Assembly (NCBI GenBank): GCA_964016885.1
Contig: OZ024747.1
Coordinates: forward strand, 75,454,001 to 75,518,000
Length of the DNA stretch: 64,000 bases
Source: Eledone cirrhosa
Taxonomy: Eukaryota
Reading direction: 5' to 3'
Shown here: positions 2,689-54,290 of the stretch, piece by piece
Position numbering within the stretch: the first letter of the stretch is position 1
Layout: the number at the start of each line of letters is the position of its first letter
Program-made: the position numbers and the translations under genes
The notes under the pieces: generated by a model
The model's database searches: none
What the model was told of the DNA's origin: nothing
What the model saw: only the letters and a program-made list of their open reading frames with translations

Positions 2689-3395
2689 ATTCAAATTCAA
2701 ATTCAATTCAATATATTTGGCAGAAATTAAAACATAGATGCTTCAGATGCCAAGTAAGGAGAGGATCGGGGCAACATTTACACAGTCCCAAACACAGTGG
2801 TCCAACACCGGTCCAATTTCGCCTTGAATTGTTGCGTGGTTGACACGTTGACTACTTCTTCTGGAAGCCGATTCCAGGGTCCAGAGATGCGGATCGAGAA
2901 AGCAGCTTTCCGTCTTAGGCAAAAGCGGTGGTGAAACAGCTTTTTGTCATGTCCACGTAGACCCCTTTCAAGTGCCGGAGTGATTAGGAGATCTTGAGGG
3001 AGATCGTAATGGCCATTGAAGAGATTGTAAGCCAAAATGAGATCGCCTCTTAGCCGTCGAAGGAGAAGAGGTTCAGCTTCTGCAGCCGGATTCGTAGGGC
3101 AGCTCATGAAGACCCTTTATCATTAGAGTTGCTAGTCGTTGAACTCTCTTCAAGTGATGGATATCCTGGATGAGATATGGGTTTGATGCTTGGATGCCAT
3201 ATTCTAGGTGCGGGCTCACGTGTGAGACATAGAGAGGCCTGAAAATTTCTGGAGTAAGTTTGGCAAAGGAGCGTCGAATAAGAAAAAGAGAGCTCCTTGC
3301 CTTGTTTGCGGCTTGAATGCAATGTTTTGATGGACGAGTCGACTAGCAGACCAAGATCTTTAGTCTCCTCAACCTCCTTCATAATATAATATTCG
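2689..3395 (-). mobile_element. CR1-clade LINE, 5'-truncated and frameshifted 3' end
   Basis: KDLG-, RRLRGDLI, RGH, WNRLPEEVV...FKAKLD motifs; short 3' UTR ending in a (TTGAA/TTTGAA)n tail. Confidence 0.85.
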
Positions 3396-4296: not shown

Positions 4297-4351
<55 letters not shown>

Positions 4352-16964: not shown

Positions 16965-18342
16965 CAGTGGCGGATTTAAGGAATAGGGCCCAGTCGGCAT
17001 TGGTCAGTAAGGAGGTCCCAGAGTGAAAATTAAAGTACCTTCTTTTCGAGCGAGTATTGAAAAAGTTTTTTTTTTAATTTCCCATTTAGCTACCAATAAT
17101 CATTAAGAAGACAATTAAATTACAAGTACACTTTATTTGAAACAAACAAACAGATGTGCTGTACTGTAAACAAATAATAAAGTAATAAAGTTGTATATAT
17201 GTTAGTCTTTTACACAAATTGCTTTTACATGCGCAGACCTCTGCGAGCTTTAACAGTTGAAAAATGAGTTATAGCGTGGTCCAAGTTTACTGATTTAGTA
17301 ATTTTGTTTTCAATTGCCAGCAGGGCAAAACTGGATAGCCTCTCCTGGCCCATCGTTGAACGAAGATAATTTTTAATTCTGAAAGAGCGTTCCGCACTTG
17401 CTATGCCAATTGGTAAAGTGAGAAATAGCCTTACCAGAATTTCAAACTCGGGAAAGACATCACACAAGTCATTGTTCAGTAAAAATTTCAGATATGGCAT
17501 AACCCCACTTTGTTTTAAAGCTGCGTTTGGCTGTGAAAAGTAGAGGCCAATGAAAGAAAAGAGTTCATTTCTGAGTTCCAGTGTGAATTCATTTGGAAAG
17601 TTATCTACCAATGTTGTTACATGTGTTTTTAGTTCATCATCTGAGCATTTAGCCAGTCGATTTGGACTCAAAAATCCAAAGATTGAAGATATTTTTTTTA
17701 TTCCTTCAGTTCGGGCTCTCATCTCTCCAATCATACTATCCAGTGATTGAAAATAAATTGCAGTGCGATATCTATCTGAAGCAGTAGCTAGTCTTTCAAC
17801 ACCACAAACTTCACCATCTATAATCTTTCTTCTCCTTACTCGCGTTATTTTAAAATCAGCTTCAGATGCATCAAATCCCACGTCATTCCAGGCTTTCTTT
17901 GCCTGGTCCACAAATTGTTCAAATTTGTGATCGCATCTGAGTTCTTCCAATTTATCTGTTGAACGTTCAAAGCACTCAGTCACAAGGAATAAATCAAAAA
18001 GAAACTAAAAAAAAAACCAAGAAACTAACAAAAATATCGCCAAAAAAAAACAAAACAATGAAACTAACAAAAACGTTTCAAATAAATAAATAAATCTATA
18101 TTTCTTTTAACGGCTAAAAAAAGGGGAATGTAAATTTGTTGGAATAGCCTCATTTCAGCAGCCAGCAGCGAAGTTATTTAGCCTCATATCAGCAGCGAAC
18201 AGCGAAGTTATTTAGCCCTAGGCATGAGGGAGGTATTTTTGGATATCGCACAAATTACAATTTTTTTTTTTTTTGCAAGCGCCCAGTCGGCAGGGGCCCA
18301 GTCGGCATTTGCCACCTTCGCCACCTGTTAAATCCGCCACTG
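16965..18342 (-). mobile_element. hAT DNA transposon, internally deleted (non-autonomous)
   Basis: Perfect 15-bp TIRs CAGTGGCGGATTTAA/TTAAATCCGCCACTG; perfect 8-bp TSD GTACCTAT (16957-16964, 18343-18350). Confidence 0.95.
17225..17983 (-). pseudogene. C-terminal part of a hAT transposase (Tip100/ZMYM1-like) with hATC dimerisation domain
   Basis: LFLTLPIGIASAERSF-RIKNYLRSTMGQERLSSFALLAIE; N-terminal and most catalytic regions absent. Confidence 0.88.
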
Positions 18343-20915: not shown

Positions 20916-21494
20916 ATCCTCCTCTACTACTACCATTGAAGTAGTAGTAGTAGTGGTAGAAATGTCGGTAGTGGTAGTGGTGATGGTGGTAGTAGTCGTT
21001 GTAGAGTACGTTTAGTAGCCTTTAGCAGCTGTGTACTACTAATACTTACTACTTACTACTGCTACTGTACTGCTGCTGCTGCTGCTGCTGCTGCTACTAC
21101 TACTACTACTGACTACTACTACTACTACTACTGACTACTACTATCTACTATACTACTACTATACTAGTAGTTGTATTGGTGGTAGCAGCTGCATTACCGT
21201 AAGTAACAGTAGTGGTAGTAGAAGCAGCTGTGGTGGTAGTAGTAGTAGTTGATGCTGTTTCTGATGCTGCTGTAATTATTGTTGAACTCATCGTCCTGGT
21301 TACTACAATGCATCAATAACAACGGTAATAAGTTTATCGTCATCATCACCATCTCAGCAACAGGTGCAGCAACAACAACTGCAGCAGCAACGGCGGCAGC
21401 AGCATCAATGGCAGCAACGGCAGCAGCAACAACGACAGCAACAAATGCAGGAGGAGAAACGCAGTCCTCATCGTCGTAGTTGTCATCACCATCA

Positions 21495-22936
21495 GCCACT
21501 AACACCACCACCACCACCACCACCGCCACCACCACTAACACCTCCACCACAACACCTCCACCACCACCGCCACCACCGCCACTAACACCACCACCACCGC
21601 CACTAACACCACCACCACCACCGCCACCACCGCCACCACCACTAACACCTCCACCACCACCGCCACCACCGCCACTAACACCAACACCACCGCCACTAAC
21701 ACCACCACCACCACCGCCACCACCAATAACACCTCCACCACCACCGCCACCACCACCGCCACCACCACCGCCACTAACACCACCACCGCCACTAACACCA
21801 CCACCACCACCACCGCCACCACCACCGCCACTAACACCACCACCACCACCACCACCACCGCCACTAACACCACCACCCCCACCGCCACCACCACCGCCAC
21901 TAACACCACCACCACCACCGCCACTAACACCACCACCACCACCGCCACCACCACCGCCACTAACACCACCACCACCACCACCGCCACCACCACCGCCACT
22001 AACACCACCACCACCACCACCACCACCACCACCGCCACCGCCACTAACACCACCACCACCGCCGCCACCACCACCGCCACTAACACCACCACCACCGCCA
22101 CCACCACCACCGCCACTAACACCACCACCGCCACCACCACCGCCACTAACACCACCACCACCGCCGCCACCACCACCGCCACTAACACCACCACCACCAC
22201 CGCCACCACCACCGCCACTAACACCACCACCACCACCACCGCCACCACCACCGCCACTAACACCACCACCACCACCACCGCCACCACCACCGCCACTAAC
22301 ACCACCACCACCACCACCACCACCACCACCGCCACCGCCACTAACACCACCACCACCGCCGCCACCACCACCGCCACTAACACCACCACCACCACCACCG
22401 CCACTAACACCACCACCGCCACCACCACCGCCACTAACACCACCACCACCGCCGCCACCACCACCGCCACTAACACCACCACCACCACCGCCACCACCAC
22501 CGCCACTAACACCACCACCACCACCACCGCCACCACCACCGCCACTAGCACCACCACCACCACCACCGCCACCACCACCGCCACTAACACCACCACCACC
22601 ACCACCACCACCACCACCGCCACCGCCACTAACACCACCACCACCGCCGCCACCACCACCGCCACTAACACCGCCACCACCACCGCCACTAACACCACCA
22701 CCGCCACCACCACCGCCACTAACACCACCACCACCGCCGCCACCACCACCGCCACTAACACCACCACCACCACCGCCACCACCACCACCGCCACTAACAC
22801 CACCACCGCCACCACCACCGCCACTAACACCACCACCACCGCCGCCACCACCACCGCCACTAACACCACCACCACCACCGCCACCACCACCGCCACTAAC
22901 ACCACCACCACCACCGCCACCACCACCGCCACTAAC

Positions 22937-22967
<31 letters not shown>

Positions 22968-23190
22968 CCACCACCGCCAATAACACCACCACCACCACTA
23001 ACAGCACCACCACCACCACCACCACCACCGCCACTAACACCACCACCACCACCACCGCCACCACCACCGCCACTAACACCAGCACCACCACCACCACCAC
23101 CACCACCGCCACTAACACCACCACCACCACCACCACCACCACCACCACTAACAGCACCACCACCACCACCACCACCACCGCCATCATCAT
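21495..23190. repeat. Complex (CCA)n-based minisatellite punctuated by CCGCCACTAACA
   Basis: Direct inspection; produces the spurious poly-Pro/poly-Val ORFs. Confidence 0.95.
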
Positions 23191-23299
23191 CATCGTGGCC
23201 AACATAAACACACTATGCTAGTTGTCATGATTATAACAAATTGTTGACGTCATTTTAATCCCATTATCTTTCTAGTTTCTCTCTCAGATATATCACTTG

Positions 23300-24008
<709 letters not shown>

Positions 24009-29074: not shown

Positions 29075-29515
29075 TTACGTTCTGAGTATGATTACTATTA
29101 TTAAAGTACCTGTAACGCATTGGGGTCGATTTAATTAACTCTCCCCTCCCCCAAAATTGTTGGTCTTGGGCCCAAATCAGAAACTTTGCCTTTCATCCTT
29201 ACGAAGTCGATAAAATAAAATACCAGTCACGAACTAGAGTCGATTTTAATCGACTTTCCCCTCCCCCAAAATTGTTGGCCTTGTGCCTATAGTACAAATC
29301 ATTATTATTATAAAAGGTTGGTGGATTAGCAGTATCGGTAGAAGGTCGAACGCTATGCTTTGCAGTATAGAGTTACGGCCTTTTAAGATCTGAGTTCAAA
29401 TTTCGCCGAGGTTAACTTTGCCTTTCATCCTTATAGGGTCGATAAAATAAAGCACCAATAATACACTAGGATAATTGCTGGCCTTGTACCAAAAGTAGAA
29501 ACCCTTATTATTATA
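29075..29515 (+). mobile_element. Cluster of tandem SINE copies and fragments (Nin/Deu-like core)
   Basis: AACTTTGCCTTTCATCCTTA..GTCGATAAAATAAA twice; CCCCCAAAATTGTTGG 3' part twice; full head at ~29315. Confidence 0.8.
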
Positions 29516-35002: not shown

Positions 35003-35302
35003 AATTGATATATATAAGAAATATGGTGAACATGTCATTTTCTTTTTGATTTTGTCAAATTTTCATTTTCGTCTTTTTTCGAGGGTGGATGAGGTCTTAA
35101 TATTTCTGGCTGGAATTCTGAGCTGAGCTATTTTATGGCAAGTTGTTTCAATAAACATTAGGTGGATTTATTTATTTCATTTATTCCTTTATAATCCTCG
35201 TCGTTTTTTTGTTGTTGTTACTTTTTAGCCCAAGGCCAATTCTAATCAAGCAGCTGACCTTTCATCGAATGTCGATTTGGACTATTATTCTTCTTATTAC
35301 TA

Positions 35303-35522
35303 GAGCGGTAGATTGGCAGTATCGGTAGAACGTCGGACACTATTTGTGACATAGAGTTACATCACTTTACGTTCTGAGTTCAAATCTCACCGAGGTTAAC
35401 TTTGTCTTTCATCCTTATGTGGTCGATAAAATAAAGCACCAGCAATGAACTGGGTTGATTTAATCGACTTTTGCCTCCCTTAAAATTGTTGGCCTTGTGC
35501 CTAAATCAGAAATCCTTATTAT
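35303..35522 (+). mobile_element. Full-length tRNA-derived SINE (Nin/Deu-like core)
   Basis: TGGCAGTATCGG A-box-like, GAGTTCAAATC B box, CTTTCATCCTTATGTGGTCGATAAA core, (TTA) tail. Confidence 0.85.
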
Positions 35523-39507: not shown

Positions 39508-40226
39508 CGACACCCATCTATATATGGGTGTCGTATTTCTAACATCCAATGTTAGTTCGTACTCATGCGCATGTATGTATCTGTTTGTGTGTGTGAATAT
39601 TGTATGCATATCTACGTTTGTGTGTGTTTACACTCCAAGTTTGTTTATGTATCTGTACAAATATAAGTGTAATCAATACTGAGTTGTGCTAGAAGGAAGT
39701 ACTGTTGAGACTAGAAATATGTTTTTATGTGAGGCAACAACTGGAAATCTGAGGCCTGCGTTTCATAGAGCTCGCCACCTACTGAAACAAACTGTCTCTG
39801 TCAGTACATGTATAATAATAGCCGATACCCCCCCCCACACACACACATACACATGCACATACACATGTACAACAATTATTTATTACTTAGGGGTGGGTGA
39901 TTCTTCTCTGAAGCCCTTCTGTTGTCCAGCTCTCTTGAAAGTTTCATATCACTACACAACAGAATGGTTGGTAGCTGTGCACACGAGGGAGTCTCTATAC
40001 GACCGCCTGAGATGTTAGAAAGAAATACTGACCAAATATCTCTCTAAAATAAACCCTATAGTATGGGGAAGGGGAGGTATTTATTGAACAATGCCACACG
40101 CCACAGTGGATAAGCAACTTTCTTCTGTAATGACCCACAGTTTTTGGTTCTTGGCTCAAATATATATACCCAGAGCTTCCGTTACAGTTCTGGGACTGGA
40201 CAGGCTTAACTATATATACTGTACAT

Positions 40227-40641
40227 GCCCTGATTAACTTTTTCAAATTTCATTTGAAAAGGAAAATCAGGGTAGAGAGGGAAGTGTTCTCTTCCCAGCA
40301 TTTTGTTGAAAGATGGGTGAGAGAAGCAAGTATGGCCCGAATGAATGGGCCTTCTCTGAGTATGTGTCTGTAAATTAAAGGTGGAAAACTGGGAGAGGGC
40401 ACTTGCCCTGGTGGTCAGGGCCACTGTGGTCTTTTAATGGGCTTTCTCCACAAAGGTCCCTTGGAAGTCTCCCCCCTATTGGGGAATTTTTTCTTTGTTA
40501 TTTTATTTCAACCTCTGTTTTTTTACACGCAGAAATGCCCATTTGTACCGTCCTGTATTGTCCTGTACTGTCCTTAATGTCTACTTTATGTGAACCCTTG
40601 TGATTAATAAAGAAAACATTATTATTATTATTATTATTATT
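40227..40641 (+). mobile_element. 5'-truncated older Tx1-clade element (ORF2 C-terminus + 3' UTR + (ATT)8)
   Basis: ALINFFKFHLKRKIRVEREVFSSQHFVERWVREASMARMNGPSLSMCL* is homologous to the end of ORF2 42746-46165; AATAAA then (ATT)8. Confidence 0.85.
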
Positions 40642-40853
40642 GACGAAAGTGGATGTACGTTTTTTGAAGCTCCGTGAGTAAGCAATTTTTTGAGGATTAA
40701 TTGTGGAGAATTGTTTATTTTTTTGTACCGCTGAAGCATTATAAGACATTCATTTGTACCCTGTGAAGGAATAACTCATAATATTTGGGCCTTTTGGCCC
40801 AAATATTTGAACTTTATTTTGGGAAAAATAATAATTTTTTTTCTCAAAAAAAC

Positions 40854-42716
40854 ATGGCGGAGCCACGCCCCCTAGAGGCGGGTCTGCTGTCGTGCAACGG
40901 CGACTTGAGCGTTGAGAGGAGAGGTGGGGCGAGGAGCGCCACCAGCACGAGTGTGAGCAGCGACAGTGCCAGCACCAACGGGCCGAGCGGCGCGGAAGGT
41001 GGTAATAGCGAGAGCACCAACAAAACGAACAGCACAGAGAGTAATAGTAGCGACAGCAACAGCACCAACAAGGCCAACAGCACAGAAGGTAACCACGACA
41101 CAGGGGAGAACAACAACAGCAATAGCAGCAGCAACACCAACAAGAACAACAACAGTGACAACACCAACAAGAACACTTTCGCTGCTGTGGCAGCGGCTAA
41201 AAGGAGACCATGCTACAGCATCGACTTAACCAACAGAGAGGAAAAGTTGGCCCAGGCCTGGAAAATCATAAATCAAGAGCAGACCTGGGCAAACTTAACT
41301 GTCCCGGCAGAAGCCATTGAGGCAGTGGAAAAAAGAACGGTGCATTTCAGATGCATCTCAGTAGAGACAAAGAGGGCAGCGATAATCGCCCAAGCTGACA
41401 TAGAAGCCGCACTGAAACACATCAGAGAGGACACAGACTTCATAGAGAGGGGCAGGCAATACGGCACCGTTTCGGTGCTGTTCAAGTCTGAAGCCCTCGC
41501 TGTGAAGCATTCAATGACCCCTTGCAAAACCAGCAAGGTCATAATGTACCCCTCCCACATGGGAAAACGAATAGCACGTGTGCGCATTCCCAGGATTCCA
41601 CCAGGACTTGATATGTGGTGGCTCCTGGGTTGCGTAATCGTGGAAGGAACGGATACAGTCCCGGTAGAGGCAACGAGAACTGCCAGGGACGACTGGTCCG
41701 GTGTTGATCTGGAGATACTGCTCCAAATCAGACCCGAAAACGTAAAAACAATCCCGGACCACATCCGCCTCCAAAACGGGAGGGTGTTGCATATAATGAC
41801 TGAGGGCAAAAGGCCGCATTGTTTCCTTTGTGGGGAAACGACACACTTGCGAGCCTTCTGCCCTCAACTGCCGAAAAGCGCAAGGGGTCGAAAGATTCCA
41901 CTGCTGGCGACGCCGGGACAAGGACCACCAGCAACACCGTCAACAATGGAACCACCAAAATTGCACACCCAGGGGGGAAACGAGGAAAGCTCTCCCATTC
42001 CCCCTCCCCCCCAAAATACACACACGAACAAGAACATAAACACTCACTCAGACACAAACACGCTCACAGCCACAGACCCCTCATCCTCCAGCAGTGAAGA
42101 TGAGGGAAAACCAAAGTCCCCCAAAATACAAAAAACAAAACACAAAAAAAAAAGAAATCCACAAAGCACAAACACCCCCACAAAAAAAAATACACACACC
42201 ACCCACACAAACATTTTCCCCACAGCATCACCAACACAACCACCAAAATCCCCCAAACGCAAACAAGCTAAACAGACACAAGAACAAATAGACACACAAA
42301 CATCAGAAACTACAGACACCCCACCCACAACAAACGCAGACACAATAGAAACAACACTAACAAAGCTATCACCACCACAATCACACGAACAAATAAAACC
42401 CGAGCAACAAAACATTAAAAACTTCGTGCTTGCCAGAAGGGCCAACAAGGAATTGATGGCCCATGTAGCACGAAGCACAAACATCGAAAAAGACGGGGAA
42501 ACATTTGAAGCGAGCACATTTCGCGTACCAGATAATTTGCTTCTGATGCGAATGTCGCTCGCTTCATACAAAGAAATTCGAAAGAGCTTTCCTCGGGATG
42601 TGGGAACCCCGAACGTAAAACCCACGTCAAGACTATTAAAGGGGTTCCCAAAAGAAACCCCACAAACCATGGAGGTCGAACCACCCGACCTTCACAAGAC
42701 CCCGGAAGGTAAGTAA
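40854..42716 (+). CDS. ORF1 gag-like nucleic-acid-binding protein (620 aa)
   Basis: ATG in AACATGG context, matching the copy 2 start; zinc knuckle CFLCGETTHLRAFC; N/S/T-rich low-complexity regions. Confidence 0.88.
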   Translation: MAEPRPLEAGLLSCNGDLSVERRGGARSATSTSVSSDSASTNGPSGAEGGNSESTNKTNSTESNSSDSNSTNKANSTEGNHDTGENNNSNSSSNTNKNNNSDNTNKNTFAAVAAAKRRPCYSIDLTNREEKLAQAWKIINQEQTWANLTVPAEAIEAVEKRTVHFRCISVETKRAAIIAQADIEAALKHIREDTDFIERGRQYGTVSVLFKSEALAVKHSMTPCKTSKVIMYPSHMGKRIARVRIPRIPPGLDMWWLLGCVIVEGTDTVPVEATRTARDDWSGVDLEILLQIRPENVKTIPDHIRLQNGRVLHIMTEGKRPHCFLCGETTHLRAFCPQLPKSARGRKIPLLATPGQGPPATPSTMEPPKLHTQGGNEESSPIPPPPQNTHTNKNINTHSDTNTLTATDPSSSSSEDEGKPKSPKIQKTKHKKKRNPQSTNTPTKKNTHTTHTNIFPTASPTQPPKSPKRKQAKQTQEQIDTQTSETTDTPPTTNADTIETTLTKLSPPQSHEQIKPEQQNIKNFVLARRANKELMAHVARSTNIEKDGETFEASTFRVPDNLLLMRMSLASYKEIRKSFPRDVGTPNVKPTSRLLKGFPKETPQTMEVEPPDLHKTPEGK

Positions 42717-42745
42717 ACCTTTCCTCTCCCATTCATCCTGCCAGC

Positions 42746-45700
42746 ATGGCCATAAGAGTAGGAAGTTTAAATGTTCGTGGCCTGGGGTCGCCCTGGAAGC
42801 AAGGTCACTTGCTCAACGACCTCAGGTCACTAGGAATGGATGTAATTGCCATCAGCGAGACCAGAATTTCCGACACACGCGCACTGGCGCCGATTTTCGA
42901 CGATTATCAGATCTTTGCATCTGTTAGTCGGCCGGGAATGGGAGGTGGAGTGGCTGTGCTGTTTAGGAAATGTCTGGATCTCGAGGTAAGGTCAATCTTC
43001 CGGGATCCTGACGGAAAGTTGGTGGTCCTGGACGTGAGCAATAGCGAAGGTGGTGCCTTTAGACTGGTGGCCGTCTACGCCCCTACTGGGGCCGGTCGGC
43101 CGGACCTCTTTAGGCGCCTGGAAAACTTTCTGCTTACGTCTCGCCCTTTACTGTTAATAGGGGATTGGAATGGCATCTTAGAAGCACGCTGGGATTGTGT
43201 GGGAGTATCTGATAGGAGCGGGGGGTGCAAAAGCCTCAAGTACCTGATCAGCCAGTTTCAACTGTCTGACAGGTACCGACTAGATTTCCCTAATGCGCCA
43301 GTATGGACCTGGACCAATCGCATAGGGTCATCTAGATCGTACATAGATAGGATTTTCATTAGGAAAAGAGATAGAAATAGTGTAGGATGTCCACATTTTA
43401 AAACGGTTGCCTATTCAGATCACAAGCTTGTGATCTGTATGGTCGACCTAGATAAGACACGTAGGTTAGGACCTAGCTACTGGAAGCTAAACATGTCGTT
43501 TCCGGCACGTAAAGCTTACAGGGACCGGGTCAACAACTTAGTTAAGCAAAAGTTGACAGGGGGGGTTGTCAACAACAGGTGGTGGGGGGCACTCAAAAGA
43601 GAGATTAGAGCAACCTCGATAGGATTTAGCAAAGAAGTAGCAATAGAGAAAAATAGAAAGGAGGAGGGGCTGATAGCTAAGTTAGACGAGGCTATTTGTA
43701 GTGGCATTGCAACAGACGTGCTAGCGGCGAGAATGGCACTAGACCATTTCTTCAATGCGAAACACGAAGGTTGCATTGTCAGAGCTAAGGCGCGTGCTCT
43801 GAGGAACGAGGGAACCAAAGCTGCCCGATGGGCTCGCTTTGCAGAGACGCAGCGTGGAAATAAAACCACAATTCGGTCTTTGACGGATCGAGATGGACAC
43901 GAACTGAGCGATTCCAAGCAGATGTGTGAGGCCTTTCGCCAGCACTTTGCTCGATTGTTCGGGAGGATGGGTGAGTCGGAGACGGCGGCGGACTTCAGTC
44001 CCTACCTCGACGGCTTGCCACGCCTCTCGACGGCCGACGCTGAGCGCTGCGAAGAGCCGATAACATCAGCCGAAATTCAGGACGCCCTTGTCGGCTGCTC
44101 GAGTCGCAAGTCACCCGGTTTGGATGGTCTGCCCTACGAGCTTTACGTAAATATGCCAGACTTGTTCTCCGATCTCCTCGAAGCGCTCTACTGCAACTGG
44201 CAGCAGAACGGGAGCATTCCCAGTTCTGTGAGCCGTGGCGTAGTGACGCTGATAAGGAAAGACGAGAACAAGAGGGACACACTAGATAATTTCAGGCCCA
44301 TAACCCTGCTCAACACAGAGTTTAAGATTTTGGCCAAGGTGTTAGCGAAAAGGTTGGCGCTTGTCGTCAAAGATTTGGTTGGGGAGGCGCAAACTTGCGC
44401 AATCCCGACCAGGTCCATACACGACAACCTCCACCTCATGCGATACATCATAGAGAGGGTTGGGTGCAAACCTGGCTTCGGTGGGGCTCTGATCAATTTA
44501 GATCAATCGAAAGCATTCGATAGGGTCGACCATCGGTACTTGGAGGCTGTCCTCGAGGCGGCTGGCTTCGGCCCCGTCTTCAGAAGCTGGATCGCTGCAA
44601 TGTACAGCGGCATCCGCTCGGTGGTCAAAGTTAATGGCCACCTCTCGGAACCGTTTCAGATCTCTCGATCGGTCCGTCAAGGGTGCCCTCTCTCCTCACT
44701 TCTGTACGTATTGACTCTTGAGCCTCTACTGCGGAAGCTGGAGTTGTTGCAGGGCATCCCGCTCGAACCGGGACGTAGAAAGGCTGCGTCCGCTTATGCG
44801 GACGACATCACCGTGATGGTGTCGGACACCTCGGAAATCGAGGTGATCCGCACCCATTTGGAGGAATATGAAAGGTTGACGGGAGCAAAACTTAACCCGG
44901 AAAAGTCGGTGGGCTTGCAGCTCGGCACCTGGAGAGGCAAGTCCATGCCGTCCAACAGCGTCGTTGGGCGCTGGACAGACGGACCGGTAAAGTTGCTCGG
45001 GGTTTGGTTCGGACCAGACCTCCAGGTGGATAAGAATTGGGACGAGGTGACGAGCAGGATAGCCAACCTCACCCAGAAATGGGCTGAGAGAAAGCTATCA
45101 CTGAAAGGGCGGGCGGAGGTGGCGAACGCGTACATCGCGTCCGTCATCTACTACCGCCTGACCGTCGTGCCTTGCCCCCGTCCACGCCTCGCCAATTTGG
45201 AACGGCTCCTTTTCAAATTTTTGTGGAGGGGACGGGTCCCGTTGGTGAGGCGGTCCATCTGCTGCCAGCACCCTCTTCGTGGAGGGCTGGGCATGCCGTG
45301 GCTAATGATGCGCAGACATGCGCTGAGGCTGCGACATCTCCAGATATTTTGCCTAAACGGTGAACAGGTGTGGTCGCCGTTTGTTAGACGGGCCTTTCCG
45401 CAGCTCATCTCTTTGACTGAGCTGCAGTCCTGGGTCAAGAAGAGACCGAGACTGGGCGACTGGCATCTGGAATGTTGCCAGGCGCTCACTGCACTCTGCA
45501 AGGTGGGCAATGCGGTCAGTGGAACTTCCACTCAAGATTTCTATAGAGGATTAGTGGAGGGCAAGTGCGATGACGTACTAGGAGAGGCTCTGGGCGTCAA
45601 CGAAGTAGAACTGACCAGTATGTTCCGGAGGACTTTCGAGCCGGGGACGATGGATAACTTCCAGAAATCCCTCGCTTGGCAGTGCTACCGGGGGGCGCTG

Positions 45701-46165
45701 CCGGTTCGGGATAAACTCTACAGGCACGGAAGTGCTGTCAGACGAACCTGCCCGAGATGCGCGCAGAGCGACGAAACCGTTCTGCACGCACTCGTCCAGT
45801 GTCCGTGCATTGCTGACTTGTGGGGTTATGTCGAACAGCTATTGTCGCGTGTAGAACGGATCCGGCTATCGTCCGAGTCCATAGTGAAGATTGACCCGCC
45901 GCCTTCTTTTGGTCAGGAAGGGCAGGCAATTTTCCTCTGCCTGGTGGCAGTAGCGAAAGAGGTTGCATGGTGGACCAGGTTGAAAGGACTGAAGACAGAC
46001 ACTTTTCTCTTCGGCCAATCCCTCATCAACTTCTTCAAGTTTCACTTGGAAAGGAAGGTGAGGGTGGAGAGAGAAGTGCTGCCCCCCAGTACATTTACTG
46101 AAAGGTGGGTGAATGTGGCGAGAATGGCCCGCGTGAGTGGGCCTACTCTGATCATGCGCCTGTAG
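42746..46165 (+). CDS. ORF2 APE endonuclease-reverse transcriptase (1139 aa)
   Basis: SLNVRGL, SET, GDWN, IDRIF, SDHK; KSPGLDG, FRPITLLN, KAFDRV, QGCPLS, YADD; C-terminal CPRC..H...C. Confidence 0.96.
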   Translation: MAIRVGSLNVRGLGSPWKQGHLLNDLRSLGMDVIAISETRISDTRALAPIFDDYQIFASVSRPGMGGGVAVLFRKCLDLEVRSIFRDPDGKLVVLDVSNSEGGAFRLVAVYAPTGAGRPDLFRRLENFLLTSRPLLLIGDWNGILEARWDCVGVSDRSGGCKSLKYLISQFQLSDRYRLDFPNAPVWTWTNRIGSSRSYIDRIFIRKRDRNSVGCPHFKTVAYSDHKLVICMVDLDKTRRLGPSYWKLNMSFPARKAYRDRVNNLVKQKLTGGVVNNRWWGALKREIRATSIGFSKEVAIEKNRKEEGLIAKLDEAICSGIATDVLAARMALDHFFNAKHEGCIVRAKARALRNEGTKAARWARFAETQRGNKTTIRSLTDRDGHELSDSKQMCEAFRQHFARLFGRMGESETAADFSPYLDGLPRLSTADAERCEEPITSAEIQDALVGCSSRKSPGLDGLPYELYVNMPDLFSDLLEALYCNWQQNGSIPSSVSRGVVTLIRKDENKRDTLDNFRPITLLNTEFKILAKVLAKRLALVVKDLVGEAQTCAIPTRSIHDNLHLMRYIIERVGCKPGFGGALINLDQSKAFDRVDHRYLEAVLEAAGFGPVFRSWIAAMYSGIRSVVKVNGHLSEPFQISRSVRQGCPLSSLLYVLTLEPLLRKLELLQGIPLEPGRRKAASAYADDITVMVSDTSEIEVIRTHLEEYERLTGAKLNPEKSVGLQLGTWRGKSMPSNSVVGRWTDGPVKLLGVWFGPDLQVDKNWDEVTSRIANLTQKWAERKLSLKGRAEVANAYIASVIYYRLTVVPCPRPRLANLERLLFKFLWRGRVPLVRRSICCQHPLRGGLGMPWLMMRRHALRLRHLQIFCLNGEQVWSPFVRRAFPQLISLTELQSWVKKRPRLGDWHLECCQALTALCKVGNAVSGTSTQDFYRGLVEGKCDDVLGEALGVNEVELTSMFRRTFEPGTMDNFQKSLAWQCYRGALPVRDKLYRHGSAVRRTCPRCAQSDETVLHALVQCPCIADLWGYVEQLLSRVERIRLSSESIVKIDPPPSFGQEGQAIFLCLVAVAKEVAWWTRLKGLKTDTFLFGQSLINFFKFHLERKVRVEREVLPPSTFTERWVNVARMARVSGPTLIMRL

Positions 46166-46654
46166 GCTGGTGAATTCGAGAAGGAGAGGGGTGCCCTTCC
46201 CGGGTGCCCTAGGAGCGTCGGGTGGCTCAGGACTGGTGGGGTGCTTGAGTCAACCCTGGGTGGTGATCCCTCTTATTGGGGAACTTTCATTGTTGTATTT
46301 TTATTGTTATTTTGTTTTTGTTTTTTTGTTATTTATACTTACTCGATCTCTATGTAAACCCCCACTGTCCCTGTCTATTGTGTTGTCCCCTATATGTCGG
46401 CCCTTGTGGCCAATAAATGAAATCATTATTATTATTATTATTGACGAAAGTGGATGTACGTTTTTTGAAGCTCCGTGAGTAAGCAATTTTTTGAGGATTA
46501 ATTGTAGAGAATTGTTTATTTTTTGTACCGCTGAAGCATTATAAGACATTAATTTGTATCCTGTGAAGGAATAACTCATAATATTTGGGCCTTTTGGCCC
46601 AAATATTTGAACTTTATTTTGAAAAAAAAATAATAATTTTTTTCTCAAAAAAAC

Positions 46655-48565
46655 ATGGCGGAGCCACGCCCCCTAGAGGCGGGTCTGCTGTCGTGCAACG
46701 GCGACTTGAGCGTTGAGAGGAGAGGTGAGGCGAGGAGCGCCACCAGCACGAATGTGAGCAGCGACAGTGCCAGCACCAACGGGCCGAGCGGCGCGGAAGG
46801 TGGTAACAGCGACAACACCAACACCAACAAGCCGAACAGCGCAGAAGGTGGTAATAACGAGAGCACCAACAAAACGAACAGCACAGAGAGTAATAGTAGC
46901 GACAGCAACAGCACCAACAAGGCCAACAGCACAGAGGGTAACCACGACACAGGGGAGAACAACAACAGCAATAGCAGCAGCAACACCAACAAGAACAACA
47001 ACAGTGACAACACCAACAAGAACACTTTCGCTGCTGTGGCAGCGGCTAAAAGGAGACCATGCTACAGCATCGACTTAACCAACAGAGAGGAAAAGTTGGC
47101 CCAGGCCTGGAAAATCATAAATCAAGAGCAGACCTGGGCAAACTTAACTGTCCCGGCAGAAGCCATTGAGGCAGTGGAAAAAAGAACGGTGCATTTCAGA
47201 TGCATCTCAGTAGAGACAAAGAGGGCAGCGATAATCGCCCAAGCTGACATAGAAGCCGCACTGAAATACATCAGAGAGGACACAGACTTCATAGAGAGGG
47301 GCAGGCAATACGGCACCGTTTCGGTGCTGTTCAAGTCTGAAGCCCTCGCTGTGAAGCATTCAATGACCCCTTGCAAAACCAGCAAGGTCATAATGTACCC
47401 CTCCCACATGGGAAAACGAATAGCACGTGTGCGCATTCCCAGGATTCCACCAGGACTTGATATGTGGTGGCTCCTGGGTTGCGTAATCGTGGAAGGAACG
47501 GATACAGTCCCGGTAGAGGCAACGAGAACTGCCAGGGACGACTGGTCCGGGGTTGATCTGGAGATACTGCTCCAAATCAGACCCGAAAACGTAAAAACAA
47601 TCCCGGACCACATCCGCCTCCAAAACGGGAGGGTGTTGCATATAATGACTGAGGGCAAAAGGCCGCATTGTTTCCTTTGTGGGGAAACGACACACTTGCG
47701 AGCCTTCTGCCCTCAACTGCCGAAAAGCGCAAGGGGTCGAAAGATTCCACTGCTGGCGACGCCGGGACAAGGACCACCAGCAACACCGTCAACAATGGAA
47801 CCACCAAAATTGCACACCCAGGGGGGAAACGAGGAAAGCTCTCCCATTCCCCCTCCCCCCCAAAATACACACACGAACAAGAACATAAACACTCACTCAG
47901 ACACAAACACGCTCACAGCCACAGACCCCTCATCCTCCAGCAGTGAAGATGAGGGAAAACCAAAGTCCCCCAAAATACAAAAAACAAAACACAAAAAAAA
48001 AAGAAATCCACAAAGCACAAACACCCCCACAAAAAAAAATACACACACCACCCACACAAACATTTTCCCCACAGCATCACCAACACAACCACCAACATCC
48101 CCCAAACGCAAACAAGCTAAACAGACACAAGAACAAATAGACACACAAACATCAGAAACTACAGACACCCCACCCACAACAAACGCAGACACAATAGAAA
48201 CAACACTAACAAAGCTATCACCACCACAATCACACGAACAAATAAAACCCGAGCAACAAAACATTAAAAACTTCGTGCTTGCCAGAAGGGCCAACAAGGA
48301 ATTGATGGCCCATGTAGCACGAAGCACAAACATCGAAAAAGACGGGGAAACATTTGAAGCGAGCACATTTCGCGTACCAGATAATTTGCTTCTGATGCGA
48401 ATGTCGCTCGCTTCATACAAAGAAATTCGAAAGAGCTTTCCTCGGGATGTGGGAACCCCGAACGTAAAACCCACGTCAAGACTATTAAAGGGGTTCCCAA
48501 AAGAAACCCCACAAACCATGGAGGTCGAACCACCCGACCTTCACAAGACCCCGGAAGGTAAGTAA
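46655..48565 (+). CDS. ORF1 gag-like protein (636 aa)
   Basis: As copy 1, plus a 16-aa in-frame insertion. Confidence 0.9.
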   Translation: MAEPRPLEAGLLSCNGDLSVERRGEARSATSTNVSSDSASTNGPSGAEGGNSDNTNTNKPNSAEGGNNESTNKTNSTESNSSDSNSTNKANSTEGNHDTGENNNSNSSSNTNKNNNSDNTNKNTFAAVAAAKRRPCYSIDLTNREEKLAQAWKIINQEQTWANLTVPAEAIEAVEKRTVHFRCISVETKRAAIIAQADIEAALKYIREDTDFIERGRQYGTVSVLFKSEALAVKHSMTPCKTSKVIMYPSHMGKRIARVRIPRIPPGLDMWWLLGCVIVEGTDTVPVEATRTARDDWSGVDLEILLQIRPENVKTIPDHIRLQNGRVLHIMTEGKRPHCFLCGETTHLRAFCPQLPKSARGRKIPLLATPGQGPPATPSTMEPPKLHTQGGNEESSPIPPPPQNTHTNKNINTHSDTNTLTATDPSSSSSEDEGKPKSPKIQKTKHKKKRNPQSTNTPTKKNTHTTHTNIFPTASPTQPPTSPKRKQAKQTQEQIDTQTSETTDTPPTTNADTIETTLTKLSPPQSHEQIKPEQQNIKNFVLARRANKELMAHVARSTNIEKDGETFEASTFRVPDNLLLMRMSLASYKEIRKSFPRDVGTPNVKPTSRLLKGFPKETPQTMEVEPPDLHKTPEGK

Positions 48566-48594
48566 ACCTTTCCTCTCCCATTCATCCTGCCAGC

Positions 48595-51500
48595 ATGGCC
48601 ATAAGAGTAGGAAGTTTAAATGTTCGTGGCCTGGGGTCGCCCTGGAAGCAAGGTCACTTGCTCAACGACCTCAGGTCACTAGGAATGGATGTAATTGCCA
48701 TCAGCGAGACCAGAATTTCCGACACACGCGCACTGGCGCCGATTTTCGACGATTATCAGATCTTTGCATCTGTTAGTCGGCCGGGAATGGGAGGTGGAGT
48801 GGCTGTGCTGTTTAGGAAATGTCTGGATCTCGAGGTAAGGTCAATCTTCCGGGATCCTGACGGAAAGTTGGTGGTCCTGGACGTGAGCAATAGCGAAGGT
48901 GGTGCCTTTAGACTGGTGGCCGTCTACGCCCCTACTGGGGCCGGTCGGCCGGACTTCTTTAGGCGCCTGGAAAACTTTCTGCTTACGTCTCGCCCTTTAC
49001 TGTTAATAGGGGATTGGAATGGCATCTTAGAAGCACGCTGGGATTGTGTGGGAGTATCTGATAGGAGCGGGGGGTGCAAAAGCCTCAAGTACCTGATCAG
49101 CCAGTTTCAACTGTCTGACAGGTACCGACTAGATTTCCCTAATGCGCCAGTATGGACCTGGACCAATCGCATAGGGTCATCTAGATCGTACATAGATAGG
49201 ATTTTCATTAGGAAAAGAGATAGAAATAGTGTAGGATGTCCACATTTTAAAACGGTTGCCTATTCAGATCACAAGCTTGTGATCTGTATGGTCGACCTAG
49301 ATAAGACACGTAGGTTAGGACCTAGCTACTGGAAGCTAAACATGTCGTTTCCGGCACGTAAAGCTTACAGGGACCGGGTCAACAACTTAGTTAAGCAAAA
49401 GTTGACAGGGGGGGTTGTCAACAACAGGTGGTGGGGGGCACTCAAAAGAGAGATTAGAGCAACCTCGATAGGATTTAGCAAAGAAGTAGCAATAGAGAAA
49501 AATAGAAAGGAGGAGGGGCTGATAGCTAAGTTAGACGAGGCTATTTGTAGTGGCATTGCAACAGACGTGCTAGCGGCGAGAATGGCACTAGACCATTTCT
49601 TCAATGCGAAACACGAAGGTTGCATTGTCAGAGCTAAGGCGCGTGCTCTGAGGAACGAGGGAAGCAAAGCTGCCCGATGGGCTCGCTTTGCAGAGACGCA
49701 GCGTGGAAATAAAACCACAATTCGGTCTTTGACGGATCGAGATGGACACGAACTGAGCGATTCCAAGCAGATGTGTGAGGCCTTTCGCCAGCACTTTGCT
49801 CGATTGTTCGGGAGGATGGGTGAGTCGGAGACGGCGGCGGACTTCAGTCCCTACCTCGACGGCTTGCCACGCCTCTCGACGGCCGACGCTGAGCGCTGCG
49901 AAGAGCCGATAACATCAGCCGAAATTCAGGACGCCCTTGTCGGCTGCTCGAGTCGCAAGTCACCCGGTTTGGATGGTCTGCCCTACGAGCTTTACGTAAA
50001 TATGCCAGACTTGTTCTCCGATCTCCTCGAAGCGCTCTACTGCAACTGGCAGCAGAACGGGAGCATTCCCAGTTCTGTGAGCCGTGGCGTAGTGACGCTG
50101 ATAAGGAAAGACGAGAACAAGAGGGACACACTAGATAATTTCAGGCCCATAACCCTGCTCAACACAGAGTTTAAGATTTTGGCCAAGGTGTTAGCGAAAA
50201 GGTTGGCGCTTGTCGTCAAAGATTTGGTTGGGGAGGCGCAAACTTGCGCAATCCCGACCAGGTCCATACACGACAACCTCCACCTCATGCGATACATCAT
50301 AGAGAGGGTTGGGTGCAAACCTGGCTTCGGTGGGGCTCTGATCAATTTAGATCAATCGAAAGCATTCGATAGGGTCGACCATCGGTACTTGGAGGCTGTC
50401 CTCGAGGCGGCTGGCTTCGGCCCCGTCTTCAGAAGCTGGATCGCTGCAATGTACAGCGGCATCCGCTCGGTGGTCAAAGTTAATGGCCACCTCTCGGAAC
50501 CGTTTCAGATCTCTCGATCGGTCCGTCAAGGGTGCCCTCTCTCCTCACTTCTGTACGTATTGACTCTTGAGCCTCTACTGCGGAAGCTGGAGTTGTTGCA
50601 GGGCATCCCGCTCGAACCGGGACGTAGAAAGGCTGCGTCCGCTTATGCGGACGACATCACCGTGATGGTGTCGGACACCTCGGAAATCGAGGTGATCCGC
50701 ACCCATTTGGAGGAATATGAAAGGTTGACGGGAGCAAAACTTAACCCGGAAAAGTCGGTGGGCTTGCAGCTCGGCACCTGGAGAGGCAAGTCCATGCCGT
50801 CCAACAGCGTCGTTGGGCGCTGGACAGACGGACCGGTAAAGTTGCTCGGGGTTTGGTTCGGACCAGACCTCCAGGTGGATAAGAATTGGGACGAGGTGAC
50901 GAGCAGGATAGCCAACCTCACCCAGAAATGGGCTGAGAGAAAGCTATCACTGAAAGGGCGGGCGGAGGTGGCGAACGCGTACATCGCGTCCGTCATCTAC
51001 TACCGCCTGACCGTCGTGCCTTGCCCCCGTCCACGCCTCGCCAATTTGGAACGGCTCCTTTTCAAATTTTTGTGGAGGGGACGGGTCCCGTTGGTGAGGC
51101 GGTCCATCTGCTGCCAGCACCCTCTTCGTGGAGGGCTGGGCATGCCGTGGCTAATGATGCGCAGACATGCGCTGAGGCTGCGACATCTCCAGATATTTTG
51201 CCTAAACGGTGAACAGGTGTGGTCGCCGTTTGTTAGACGGGCCTTTCCGCAGCTCATCTCTTTGACTGAGCTGCAGTCCTGGGTCAAGAAGAGACCGAGA
51301 CTGGGCGACTGGCATCTGGAATGTTGCCAGGCGCTCACTGCACTCTGCAAGGTGGGCAATGCGGTCAGTGGAACTTCCACTCAAGATTTCTATAGAGGAT
51401 TAGTGGAGGGCAAGTGCGATGACGTACTAGGAGAGGCTCTGGGCGTCAACGAAGTAGAACTGACCAGTATGTTCCGGAGGACTTTCGAGCCGGGGACGAT

Positions 51501-52014
51501 GGATAACTTCCAGAAATCCCTCGCTTGGCAGTGCTACCGGGGGGCGCTGCCGGTTCGGGATAAACTCTACAGGCACGGAAGTGCTGTCAGACGAACCTGC
51601 CCGAGATGCGCGCAGAGCGACGAAACCGTTCTGCACGCACTCGTCCAGTGTCCGTGCATTGCTGACTTGTGGGGTTATGTCGAACAGCTATTGTCGCGTG
51701 TAGAACGGATCCGGCTATCGTCCGAGTCCATAGTGAAGATTGACCCGCCGCCTTCTTTTGGTCAGGAAGGGCAGGCAATTTTCCTCTGCCTGGTGGCAGT
51801 AGCGAAAGAGGTTGCATGGTGGACCAGGTTGAAAGGACTGAAGACAGACACTTTTCTCTTCGGCCAATCCCTCATCAACTTCTTCAAGTTTCACTTGGAA
51901 AGGAAGGTGAGGGTGGAGAGAGAAGTGCTGCCCCCCAGTACATTTACTGAAAGGTGGGTGAATGTGGCGAGAATGGCCCGCGTGAGTGGGCCTACTCTGA
52001 TCATGCGCCTGTAG
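48595..52014 (+). CDS. ORF2 APE endonuclease-reverse transcriptase (1139 aa)
   Basis: All catalytic motifs intact; two aa differences seen versus copy 1 (PDLF/PDFF, EGTK/EGSK). Confidence 0.96.
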   Translation: MAIRVGSLNVRGLGSPWKQGHLLNDLRSLGMDVIAISETRISDTRALAPIFDDYQIFASVSRPGMGGGVAVLFRKCLDLEVRSIFRDPDGKLVVLDVSNSEGGAFRLVAVYAPTGAGRPDFFRRLENFLLTSRPLLLIGDWNGILEARWDCVGVSDRSGGCKSLKYLISQFQLSDRYRLDFPNAPVWTWTNRIGSSRSYIDRIFIRKRDRNSVGCPHFKTVAYSDHKLVICMVDLDKTRRLGPSYWKLNMSFPARKAYRDRVNNLVKQKLTGGVVNNRWWGALKREIRATSIGFSKEVAIEKNRKEEGLIAKLDEAICSGIATDVLAARMALDHFFNAKHEGCIVRAKARALRNEGSKAARWARFAETQRGNKTTIRSLTDRDGHELSDSKQMCEAFRQHFARLFGRMGESETAADFSPYLDGLPRLSTADAERCEEPITSAEIQDALVGCSSRKSPGLDGLPYELYVNMPDLFSDLLEALYCNWQQNGSIPSSVSRGVVTLIRKDENKRDTLDNFRPITLLNTEFKILAKVLAKRLALVVKDLVGEAQTCAIPTRSIHDNLHLMRYIIERVGCKPGFGGALINLDQSKAFDRVDHRYLEAVLEAAGFGPVFRSWIAAMYSGIRSVVKVNGHLSEPFQISRSVRQGCPLSSLLYVLTLEPLLRKLELLQGIPLEPGRRKAASAYADDITVMVSDTSEIEVIRTHLEEYERLTGAKLNPEKSVGLQLGTWRGKSMPSNSVVGRWTDGPVKLLGVWFGPDLQVDKNWDEVTSRIANLTQKWAERKLSLKGRAEVANAYIASVIYYRLTVVPCPRPRLANLERLLFKFLWRGRVPLVRRSICCQHPLRGGLGMPWLMMRRHALRLRHLQIFCLNGEQVWSPFVRRAFPQLISLTELQSWVKKRPRLGDWHLECCQALTALCKVGNAVSGTSTQDFYRGLVEGKCDDVLGEALGVNEVELTSMFRRTFEPGTMDNFQKSLAWQCYRGALPVRDKLYRHGSAVRRTCPRCAQSDETVLHALVQCPCIADLWGYVEQLLSRVERIRLSSESIVKIDPPPSFGQEGQAIFLCLVAVAKEVAWWTRLKGLKTDTFLFGQSLINFFKFHLERKVRVEREVLPPSTFTERWVNVARMARVSGPTLIMRL

Positions 52015-52754
52015 GCTGGTGAATTCGAGAAGGAGAGGGGTGCCCTTCCCGGGTGCCCTAGGAGCGTCGGGTGGCTCAGGACTGGTGGGGTGCTTGAGTC
52101 AACCCTGGGTGGTGATCCCTCTTATTGGGGAACTTTCATTGTTGTATTTTTATTGTTATTTTGTTTTTTTGTTATTTATACTTACTCGATCTCTATGTAA
52201 ACCCCCACTGTCCCTGTCTATTGTGTTGTCCCCTATATGTCGGCCCTTGTGGCCAATAAATGAAATCATTATTATTATTATTATTATTATTAGCTCATGC
52301 TTTCTTAACACCAATACGAGACTAAAAAAGAAATTAACTTGATCATACAAACATATTTAGAGTCAGTAGTACATTAGTGTAGTATAAACCAAATCAGCTG
52401 TATATTGAAACAAATTATTGGAGGGGGTTAAACCCTAAGAGCCTCTTAGCGCCGGAAGGTTTGATATCATATCTTACATATACACATTTGAAAATATCTG
52501 TGGCCAACAGAGAACGCCTCAATCACCCAACTGTTGCTACCCCCTGTTTAAATCAAACCTAGCTATGACTGAACATTTGATCATACGTCTACTCAACCAG
52601 AGCTGTCAACAGGTTATATAACAACATCAATACCCCAAACTAAGAACTGAATGGTGTATTTCTATGTGGAGTATGGTATATCTGAAATAATTAATCTGCG
52701 GCTCACATCTGTTCGTTTAATGATTATCTATCTGGGATCTGGGACTACACAATA

Positions 52755-52955
52755 ATGGTTTCTAATTTAGGCACAAGGTGAACAATCTTTGGGGGAGGAG
52801 AAAGTCGATTACATCGACCCCAGTGTGTGACTGGTACTTTATTTTATCAACACCGTAAGGATGAAAGGCAAAACCAACGTCGACGAGATTTGAAATCAGA
52901 ACGTAAACGGCAGTAACTCTATGCCACAAAGAAAGGTATCCAACACTCTACCGAT
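52755..52955 (-). mobile_element. tRNA-derived SINE
   Basis: CTGGTACTTTATTTTATC..TAAGGATGAAAGGCAAA..GATTTGAA; reverse complement of the 35303 family. Confidence 0.8.
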
Positions 52956-53134
52956 ACTACCAACAACAACAACACCACACTGCGGTGTATTGACACAATT
53001 GGTAGAACTTCAGATAAGATGCCTTGTGTTATTTGTTTCTGAATCAGGATATGACAGAGCTGTTGTTCCATTGCTGGAATTCAATATTCTTCCTAATACA
53101 AATATTATCATCACTTAAAAATGATTTCTTTATT

Positions 53135-53422
53135 GGCCACAAATGTGTTACTGGATAGCCCTAGTTCTAGCGGGGTTTAGTAGGCCACAAATGTGTTACT
53201 GGGTAGCCCTAGTTCTAGCGGGGTTTAGTAGGCCACAAATGTGTTCCTGGATAGCCCTAGTTCTAGCGGGGTTTAGTAGGCCACAAATGTGTTACTGGAT
53301 AGCCCTAGTTCTAGCGGGGTTTAGTAGGCCACAAATGTGTTACTGGATAGCCCTAGTTCTAGCGGGGTTTAGTAGGCCACAAATGTGTTACTGGATAGCC
53401 CTAGTTCTAGCGGGGTTAAGTA
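53135..53422. repeat. 48-bp minisatellite, 6 copies
   Basis: GGCCACAAATGTGTTACTGGATAGCCCTAGTTCTAGCGGGGTTTAGTA. Confidence 0.95.
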
Positions 53423-53564: not shown

Positions 53565-54290
53565 ATGGCTGCCCCCTCGTTATCGAGTATGGCCATTGCA
53601 CGATATACCATCATTAATAATTATTAATTAATTCTATCGTGCAATGCCTGTGCATGAAGATATTTTTTTAAGTGAGGAAAGACTGTGCACTGAGCCAATC
53701 CCACTCACTGAGCGACAGTAGCTATAACCCGAAAAGAAGAAAAGATCAACATCATCGGTAACTACTGAGCCGCAGGTTTTATATCGGAGTTATCCCAGTT
53801 TCCTGAGTTGCCTTCTCCTAGAATAATTGTTTCTACTATTGGCACAAGGCCAGAAATTACCCAGTACATTACTGGTACTTTATTTTATCGACCCCGTAAG
53901 GATGAAAGGCAAAGTTAACCTCGGCGGGATTTGAACTCAGAATAGCAAGGGCCGTAACTCTATGCATCAAAGCATGGCGTCCGACCCTCTACCGATACTG
54001 CCAATCCATCTCCTAGAATAATGCCCTGACAAAGGCTAGGGGTCCTTCACTCCCAGTGGTTTAACCGCGCGGTACATGTGTATGTACATATTTACACACT
54101 TTTGGATGGCCGTTGACTCTTATGAGTTCTTCCGCCCTTTGTCAGGTTTTGTTTTTTGTCCTGCAGGGTGTCCAAAATCACCCTCCTCACCAAGTAAACT
54201 TGGTGGCGTTGCCGGTTAAGTCACCGACGACCCGGCCATGCGACAGGTTGTACTGGTTACATGTTACTAGTAGCAGTCAAGAGTGACCCA
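53565..54290 (-). mobile_element. RTE-related non-autonomous element interrupted by a SINE
   Basis: GTTGCCTTCTCCTAG...CAAAGGCTAG and CACCAAG..CTTGGTG resemble RTE 5' regions; (TACA)n flanks. Confidence 0.45.
53828..54008 (-). mobile_element. tRNA-derived SINE with 14-bp TSD
   Basis: TSD TCTCCTAGAATAAT at 53814-53827 and 54009-54022; B box and core well conserved. Confidence 0.9.

Follow-up and report, generated by a model that had tools for sequence, protein, structure and literature searches.

Head-to-tail arrays of a young L1-group retrotransposon in (ATT)n microsatellites of Eledone cirrhosa

What places two complete retrotransposons one behind the other, in the same orientation, with short (ATT)n runs before, between, and after them? 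This question is raised by a 64-kb stretch of the 3.0-Gb genome of Eledone cirrhosa (contig OZ024747.1, positions 75,454,001 to 75,518,000 of the forward strand), which is referred to here as the window. The two copies belong to a family of long interspersed nuclear elements (LINEs) denoted as family A; its sister families are denoted as A', B, and B'. An earlier account made from the letters of this DNA (the sequence-only reading) had proposed that the family both targets (ATT)n and ends in it, such that each insertion recreates its target. We favor, with a probability of roughly 0.65, the reading that family A is a young, mostly full-length LINE residing in (ATT)n, and that its arrays form by repeated insertion at the target duplication on the 5' side of existing copies, with a further local process contributing.

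The tandem pair and the fragment upstream

The fragment, both copies, and the (ATT)n runs all lie on the + strand in head-to-tail order (AP, apurinic/apyrimidinic; ORF, open reading frame; RT, reverse transcriptase; UTR, untranslated region):

40225..40617, +, 5'-truncated 3' end of a sister family (B-type), 393 bp, with ORF2 C-terminus and 3' UTR
40618..40641, +, (ATT)8, target run 5' of copy 1
40642..46424, +, family A copy 1, full-length, 5,783 bp, with 5' UTR, ORF1, ORF2, and 3' UTR
40854..42716, +, copy 1 ORF1, 620 amino acids, with a single CX2CX4HX4C knuckle at residue 323
42746..46165, +, copy 1 ORF2, 1,139 amino acids, with AP-type endonuclease, RT, and C-terminal zinc motif
46412-46417, +, AATAAA in the copy 1 3' UTR
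46425..46442, +, (ATT)6 spacer between copies 1 and 2, a probable target-site duplication
46443..52267, +, family A copy 2, full-length, 5,825 bp, a haplotype differing from copy 1
46655..48565, +, copy 2 ORF1, 636 amino acids, with a 48-bp unit absent from copy 1
48595..52014, +, copy 2 ORF2, 1,139 amino acids, 99.8% identical to copy 1 ORF2
52268..52291, +, (ATT)8, remainder of the target 3' of copy 2

These coordinates bear out the order of fragment, (ATT)8, copy 1, (ATT)6, copy 2, and (ATT)8 described in the sequence-only reading, as well as its statement that both full copies start at the same base directly after ATT: the first bases of each are GACGAAAG. Both copies had also been considered intact, and ORF1 and ORF2 are indeed open in each, the AP endonuclease (APE), RT, and zf-RVT domains are present, and the pair is among the 86 of 161 aligned full-length copies that keep both ORFs. 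The (ATT)6 spacer matches the commonest junction length genome-wide.

Over 5,793 aligned columns, copies 1 and 2 show 14 substitutions in addition to indels, one of which is the 48-bp, in-frame unit in ORF1. In the 161-copy alignment, the two are separated by 12 differences in 5,517 masked columns with 0 derived alleles in common, and the nearest relatives of each lie elsewhere in the genome, those of copy 2 at 3 differences. Because they have no derived allele in common and each is nearer to copies elsewhere, the two copies are separate insertions and neither a local nor an assembly duplication. Which of them inserted first cannot be told from their private changes (2 versus 1). Short-read contigs break at (ATT)n and so could show neither the span of the array nor an empty allele; one such contig does read across the 5' end of the sister fragment, extending just 30 letters past the junction on one side.

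The fragment had been described as old and diverged, a view that we do not retain. Translated comparison (tblastn) gives 64% amino-acid identity to ORF2 residues 1091-1137 of the full copies, with 75% identity at the nucleotide level, and the fragment is 98.5% and 98.2% identical to copies at two loci (L180 and L068). Since it is this close to its kin, its distance from family A reflects divergence between families rather than decay, and the fragment is the remnant of a 5'-truncated insertion by a sister family that is itself young.

Insertion into (ATT)n microsatellites

The placement of family A in (ATT)n is a genome-wide property. Among 324 exact family A heads, 318 directly follow (ATT)3 or more, in phase, rather than having random 5' flanks. 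In-phase (ATT)3 is expected by chance at 1.5e-4 of positions in the window flanks, and the placement of these heads is therefore not a matter of chance. When 40 copies were chosen by a perfect match to the 3' UTR, a sample that favors the youngest copies, 38 were full-length, and upstream of every one of these stood at least (ATT)5. Of the first 100 heads, 7 mark insertions into one host repeat, and its empty paralogues, which were searched with a pattern covering runs of up to 6 units (495 matches versus 58 for the reversed control), carry (ATT)4-6. The target therefore precedes the insertion. These observations show that the family lies in pre-existing (ATT)n microsatellites, as the sequence-only reading had claimed.

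The (ATT)n that follows the element has another origin than that reading supposed. While 1,584 family A ends continue with ATTATT, 99 continue with a non-A base, and 24 of 30 such ends go on with TTATT (counted by eye). Exact duplications of the 5' flank were identified at L168 (18 bp), L179 (15 bp), L287 (16 bp), L302 (17 bp), L314 (16 bp), and L150 (14 bp), and one of about 17 bp was read by eye at L297; target duplications at imperfect sites thus span 14-18 bp and begin N-TTATT. Because non-A ends occur and some of them repeat the 5' flank exactly, we conclude that the element ends at GAAATC and that the (ATT)n behind it, which had been assigned to the element as its tail, is mostly duplicated target.

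A mechanism can be proposed from these features. The endonuclease, the putative determinant of the target, would nick the (AAT)n strand next to TAATAA. The RNA would end shortly after AATAAA, probably with read-through into AUU repeats, and its 3' end would be copied from the nick. A second nick would fall about 15-21 nt downstream, and each insertion would leave target on both sides. Sister families and a short interspersed nuclear element (SINE) with the same 3' end would consequently pile up in one orientation, and head-to-tail arrays would build up as one insertion after another enters the duplicated (ATT)5-7 on the 5' side of a resident copy. In the window, a truncated sister copy with its (ATT)n would have taken two separate family A insertions.

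Formation of the arrays

Self-junctions were identified as a family A tail, (ATT)4-7, and a family A head, a pattern that misses spacers of 8 or more units; one array continues past it through (ATT)8 spacers. We detected 49 self-junctions at 28 loci. In 5 of the junctions the upstream partner is an older A' end; the other 44 lie between young full-length copies and are spread over 24 arrays of up to 10 or more copies, all in the same orientation. Spacers between family A copies comprised 5 units in 18 cases, 6 in 25, and 7 in 6, with none at 4, while those between a family A tail and a B head comprised 4 units once, 5 in 3 cases, 6 in 35, and 7 in 14. The resulting spacers of 15-21 bp compare with measured duplications of 14-18 bp. 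The largest array is the following:

G000:C1:423361000-423421000, ten-copy array A10 (L101-L107), all spacers (ATT)5

Some copies in A10 are mosaics, and behind the last copy of the array lies a small inverted segment of the family A 3' end.

Stacking across families is close to what target regeneration would produce. The genome holds at least 44,308 possible targets, counted as runs of (ATT)6 after a non-T base. The B-type sister group outnumbers family A, with 6,009 exact tails (14% of these runs) and, in one B subtype alone, 2,448 heads (5.5%). Correspondingly, among the first 100 family A heads, 21 follow a B/C-type tail and 8 a SINE tail, and about half directly adjoin the (ATT)n that ends either a Tx1-type copy or a SINE. 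On the other side, a B head comes next after 9 of 121 sampled family A ends. Stacking across families is thus roughly proportional to the share of (ATT)n sites held by the sister families, which fits the regeneration of the target by each insertion that had been claimed. Self-stacking is another matter. Young-young junctions account for 44 of the 324 family A heads (13.6%), compared with at most 53 of the 2,448 B heads being preceded by an A-type tail (2.2%), an enrichment of about 6-fold.

Neighbors in arrays are also related. Rare alleles, defined as those present in at most 2 of 90 dispersed copies, are held in common by 24 of 44 adjacent pairs (in 14 of 24 arrays; 16 of 35 pairs when the 10-mer is left out) compared to 2.7% of 1,500 dispersed pairs, and 13 of 44 adjacent pairs differ at 3 or fewer sites compared to 0.6% of dispersed pairs. 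Some neighbors are identical or nearly so (0 differences in G2 and in A10_2/3, 1 in F2, and 1 in V), arrays P and A10 have private alleles, the copy A10_7 has a mosaic composition, and within an array the spacers are uniform. The other 20 adjacent pairs, including that of the window, have no rare allele in common. Since self-arrays are enriched about 6-fold and neighbors are related, a local process adds to target regeneration, likely re-insertion of RNA from the same or a neighboring source followed by gene conversion or unequal exchange. The proposal of self-nucleated arrays across subfamilies of different age accordingly stands in part: stacks across families exist, but the fragment in the window is young and regeneration alone does not suffice for the self-arrays.

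Several observations bear on the direction of growth. From 5' to 3', the copies of A10 differ from the majority state by 5, 3, 3, 8, 8, 8, 24, 28, 30, and 25 changes, with the youngest at the 5' end. Across 24 arrays, the length of the first spacer is correlated with that of the run upstream (Spearman 0.63, p 0.001); no such relation links the last spacer to the run downstream (Spearman 0.13, 22 arrays). Arrays H and D2 join copies of different age, with 2 versus 24 and 3 versus 9 private changes, respectively; in array B3 it is the upstream copy that is older. Of 9 pairs that differ by 3 or more private changes, 8 have the older copy on the downstream side (p 0.04); this threshold was picked after seeing the data. 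We favor, with moderate confidence, growth at the 5' end rather than into tails. A separate candidate, invasion of the neighbor by the complementary DNA (common alleles 5' of differences), found no support: within-pair permutation gave p 0.015-0.03, but dispersed pairs that are closely related behave equally (area under the curve of 0.65 versus 0.64-0.66).

That post hoc threshold is one of several points that weigh against repeated 5' insertion. The polarity is modest, with the upstream copy younger in 15, the downstream copy younger in 7, and ties in 9 of the 31 pairs with more than 3 differences, and the corresponding split by distance to the majority state is 16:12:3; moreover, 9 of the 44 adjacent pairs come from a single array. 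Identical neighbors such as G2 and A10_2/3 suit DNA duplication or assembly error equally. Several truncated copies lack (ATT)n at the 5' junction, and the fragment in the window is one of them. Finally, among 17 full-length copies whose downstream run is short, 15 have no exact 14-18 bp duplication (exact match of 0-9 bp). These 15 still have in-phase (ATT)n upstream, which suggests that the second nick is variable in position or falls within the run, or else that the RNA has a 5' AUU leader; the copies at L168 and L179 show no leader.

A more far-reaching proposal, which we consider possible but less likely than not, is that the clade (at least four families plus the SINE) makes much of its own (ATT)n target supply and that family A seeks out its own copies in cis. 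Its RNA, with AUU repeats on either side, would re-insert at the 5' ends of kin or be copied as concatemers. The arrays would then be polarized, with the young copies 5', and would preserve the order of insertion; an R4-type LINE that is unrelated would use the microsatellite from the other strand. The ends of the clade match up to about 23% of the (ATT)6 runs in the genome.

It is unlikely that, with targeting unchanged, whole self-arrays arise in one event, in which RT jumps from a finished RNA to the 3' end of the next via (AUU)n and inserts a concatemer. Such jumping would account for the kinship of neighbors, the uniform spacers, and in-phase 5' junctions without exact duplication, and both template jumping and head-to-tail products are described for R2 in the account of PMC11371274; however, several arrays bring together copies whose ages clearly differ (the A10 gradient, H, and D2), the copies at L168 and L179 are without a leader, and the spacer tracks the genomic run upstream.

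Quite unlikely is an origin of the arrays mainly in tandem duplication of DNA, through unequal exchange between flanking (ATT)n or between copies, or partly in duplications of the assembly. Nearly half of adjacent pairs (20 of 44) have no rare allele in common, the kin of the window pair are elsewhere, and tandem duplication cannot yield stacks across families, even though it would readily explain the identical or near-identical neighbors in G2, A10_2/3, F2, and V, the array-private alleles of P and A10, the mosaic A10_7, and the uniformity of spacers within arrays.

We give little credence to an element that carries its own (ATT)n tail, into which later copies enter such that arrays grow 3'-ward with the oldest copy first. 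Insertion on the tail side does happen, as the heads behind sister and SINE tails attest, and both the older upstream copy in B3 and the order in the window are compatible with it. Yet ends that start with a non-ATT duplicated target require no fixed tail, the older copy is usually downstream where ages differ, and it is the upstream run that the spacer tracks; insertion into tails also predicts about 0.7-3.6% self-stacking, compared with the 14-15% observed. Random insertion of an element that has (ATT)n at both of its ends can practically be dismissed, for, some truncated copies without upstream (ATT)n aside, empty paralogous sites already carry the repeat, the sequence flanking family A runs on into microsatellites of the host and into ends of elements on the opposite strand, and for about half of the first 100 heads the adjoining sequence is the (ATT)n at the end of a Tx1-type copy or of a SINE.

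Partners, classification, and known systems

The sister families whose heads were seen (A', B, and B') all start with G directly after (ATT)n, and one B copy has an intact ORF2 with 75% identity to family A. The B-type family seems likewise to be arranged in head-to-tail runs with a spacing of ~6-7 kb (e.g., C1:55423672-55449629). A chimera at locus L080 fuses a sister-family ORF2 (family A positions 2114-3209) to the 3' part of family A from position 4325.

The SINE is abundant, about 200 bp in length, and stacks with the LINEs. Copies were identified at the following positions, the first four of which are in the window:

52757-52963, -, SINE
53816-54050, -, SINE
29314-29509, +, SINE
35294-35503, +, SINE
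L277:4030-4300, SINE

Its 3' end, CCTTGTG..GAAAC(ATT)n, aligns with the LINE ends. A copy inside the 5' UTR of an A' element is flanked by a 17-bp duplication starting TTATT, and a paralogous A' copy is empty at this site. The SINE is likely a partner of this LINE clade that would use the same enzyme. An R4/Dong-like LINE (L273:156-3578, - strand; also at L272, L277, and L282) was observed tail-to-tail with family A at (ATT)n/(AAT)n, and it follows 8 of 121 sampled family A ends on the opposite strand. Its 1,141-residue ORF contains RT, CCHC, and PD...D...K motifs and no match to APE, and the RT identity between family A and this element is 27%. Two unrelated nucleases thus appear to use one microsatellite.

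Both family A ORF2 copies match PF03372 (AP endonuclease), PF00078 (RT), and PF13966 (zf-RVT), with the RT motif YADD at residue 684 in copy 1, and the best match in the PDB is human L1 ORF2p (E 1.6e-56; R2 at 2.8e-22). Two ORFs, an N-terminal AP endonuclease, RT, a C-terminal zinc motif, and no RNase H identify the family by its sequence features as an L1-group (L1/Tx1) non-LTR (long terminal repeat) retrotransposon. In Tx1 elements, ORF1 comprises an RNA-binding region plus a CCHC knuckle. Family A ORF1 has the knuckle CFLCGETTHLRAFC at residue 323, its profile search returned no Pfam match, and its feature-level likeness to zf-CCHC / ZCCHC3-type RNA-binding clusters (Atlas; 0.90-0.93) is a lead only. 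The closest named relative of the RT is an Argonauta protein (69%), and in a tree of 28 RTs this protein forms a clade with A, B, and P0001 (0.998), which sits within a group (0.92) that also takes in proteins of Branchiostoma and Paramuricea; an Astyanax L1-like protein lies outside it. Family A shows a further Tx1-type trait in inserting at a specific sequence and duplicating its target site. Membership of the Tx1 clade is plausible from anatomy and targeting, and the tree, which contained no named Tx1 family (Tx1L, Keno, Kibi, or Koshi), is suggestive only. In searches for RNA structure at the 3' and 5' ends, no fold beat shuffles (z -0.9 to 1.2), and only a 4-bp GGCC hairpin was seen.

The core of the mechanism has clear precedents in microsatellite-targeting Tx1 elements and in arrays spaced by target duplications. 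The teleost families Kibi and Koshi are described as targeting (TC)n and (TTC)n, and crocodilian Tx1 families as targeting (TTCC)n/(TTTC)n (PMC4494074, PMC3812793); likened by these descriptions rather than by sequence comparison, they too are APE-type elements specific to microsatellites, and their targets differ from (ATT)n. The R1 arrays of Drosophila are presented as head-to-tail copies spaced by a 14-bp target duplication and formed at the 5' end (PMC2718515), and tandem SINEU-3 copies are reported to sandwich a duplication (PMC4494074). As in R1, spacer and target duplication match in family A arrays (15-21 versus 14-18 bp). In contrast, R1 belongs to another clade and uses a single site in 28S ribosomal DNA, whereas family A has a genome-wide microsatellite of 44,308 or more runs as its target and shares its stacks with several families plus a SINE. 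Human L1 ORF2p has the same APE-RT-zinc architecture, but family A copies are without trailing poly(A), differ in target and in ORF1 type, and are mostly full-length among the youngest (38/40).

Dong belongs to the R4 clade; its single ORF carries no APE but a C-terminal restriction-like nuclease. The two ORFs and the N-terminal APE of family A set it apart from Dong, while the microsatellite is the same: Dong of Bombyx, Anopheles, and Biomphalaria is recorded as targeting TAA repeats in PMC3812793, which lists it among APE types. For Octopus vulgaris, 13 recently active L1-Tx1 and 5 Dong-R4 families are reported (PMC13282606), and Hebe is described as an element without 5' truncations (PMC2861651). 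Our literature search found no (ATT)n-targeting Tx1-type family with a partner SINE, nor such arrays in cephalopods, and a prior description in Repbase or in subscription papers is quite possible.

The recognition of microsatellites by AP-type endonucleases was characterized as not well understood in a 2013 review (PMC3812793), and family A offers rare material on this subject: its insertions number in the hundreds, are nearly identical and mostly full-length, and have junctions that can be read. Because the ends of the clade match up to about a quarter of (ATT)6 runs, retrotransposition may explain part of the microsatellite load and repeat clustering of the genome. The excess of self-arrays and the kinship within them raise the question of whether a LINE re-inserts beside its source or recombination remodels the arrays.

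Other features of the window include a 27-bp inverted Tx1-type 3' end (53116-53142, - strand) that extends into the beginning of a tandem repeat with about six ~48-bp units (53131-53416). A (CAC)n-type array of 2.3 kb followed by (ACT)55 occupies positions 21487-24007, and positions 17225-18004 (- strand) hold a remnant with a hAT transposase dimerization domain (PF05699, E 3.7e-07).

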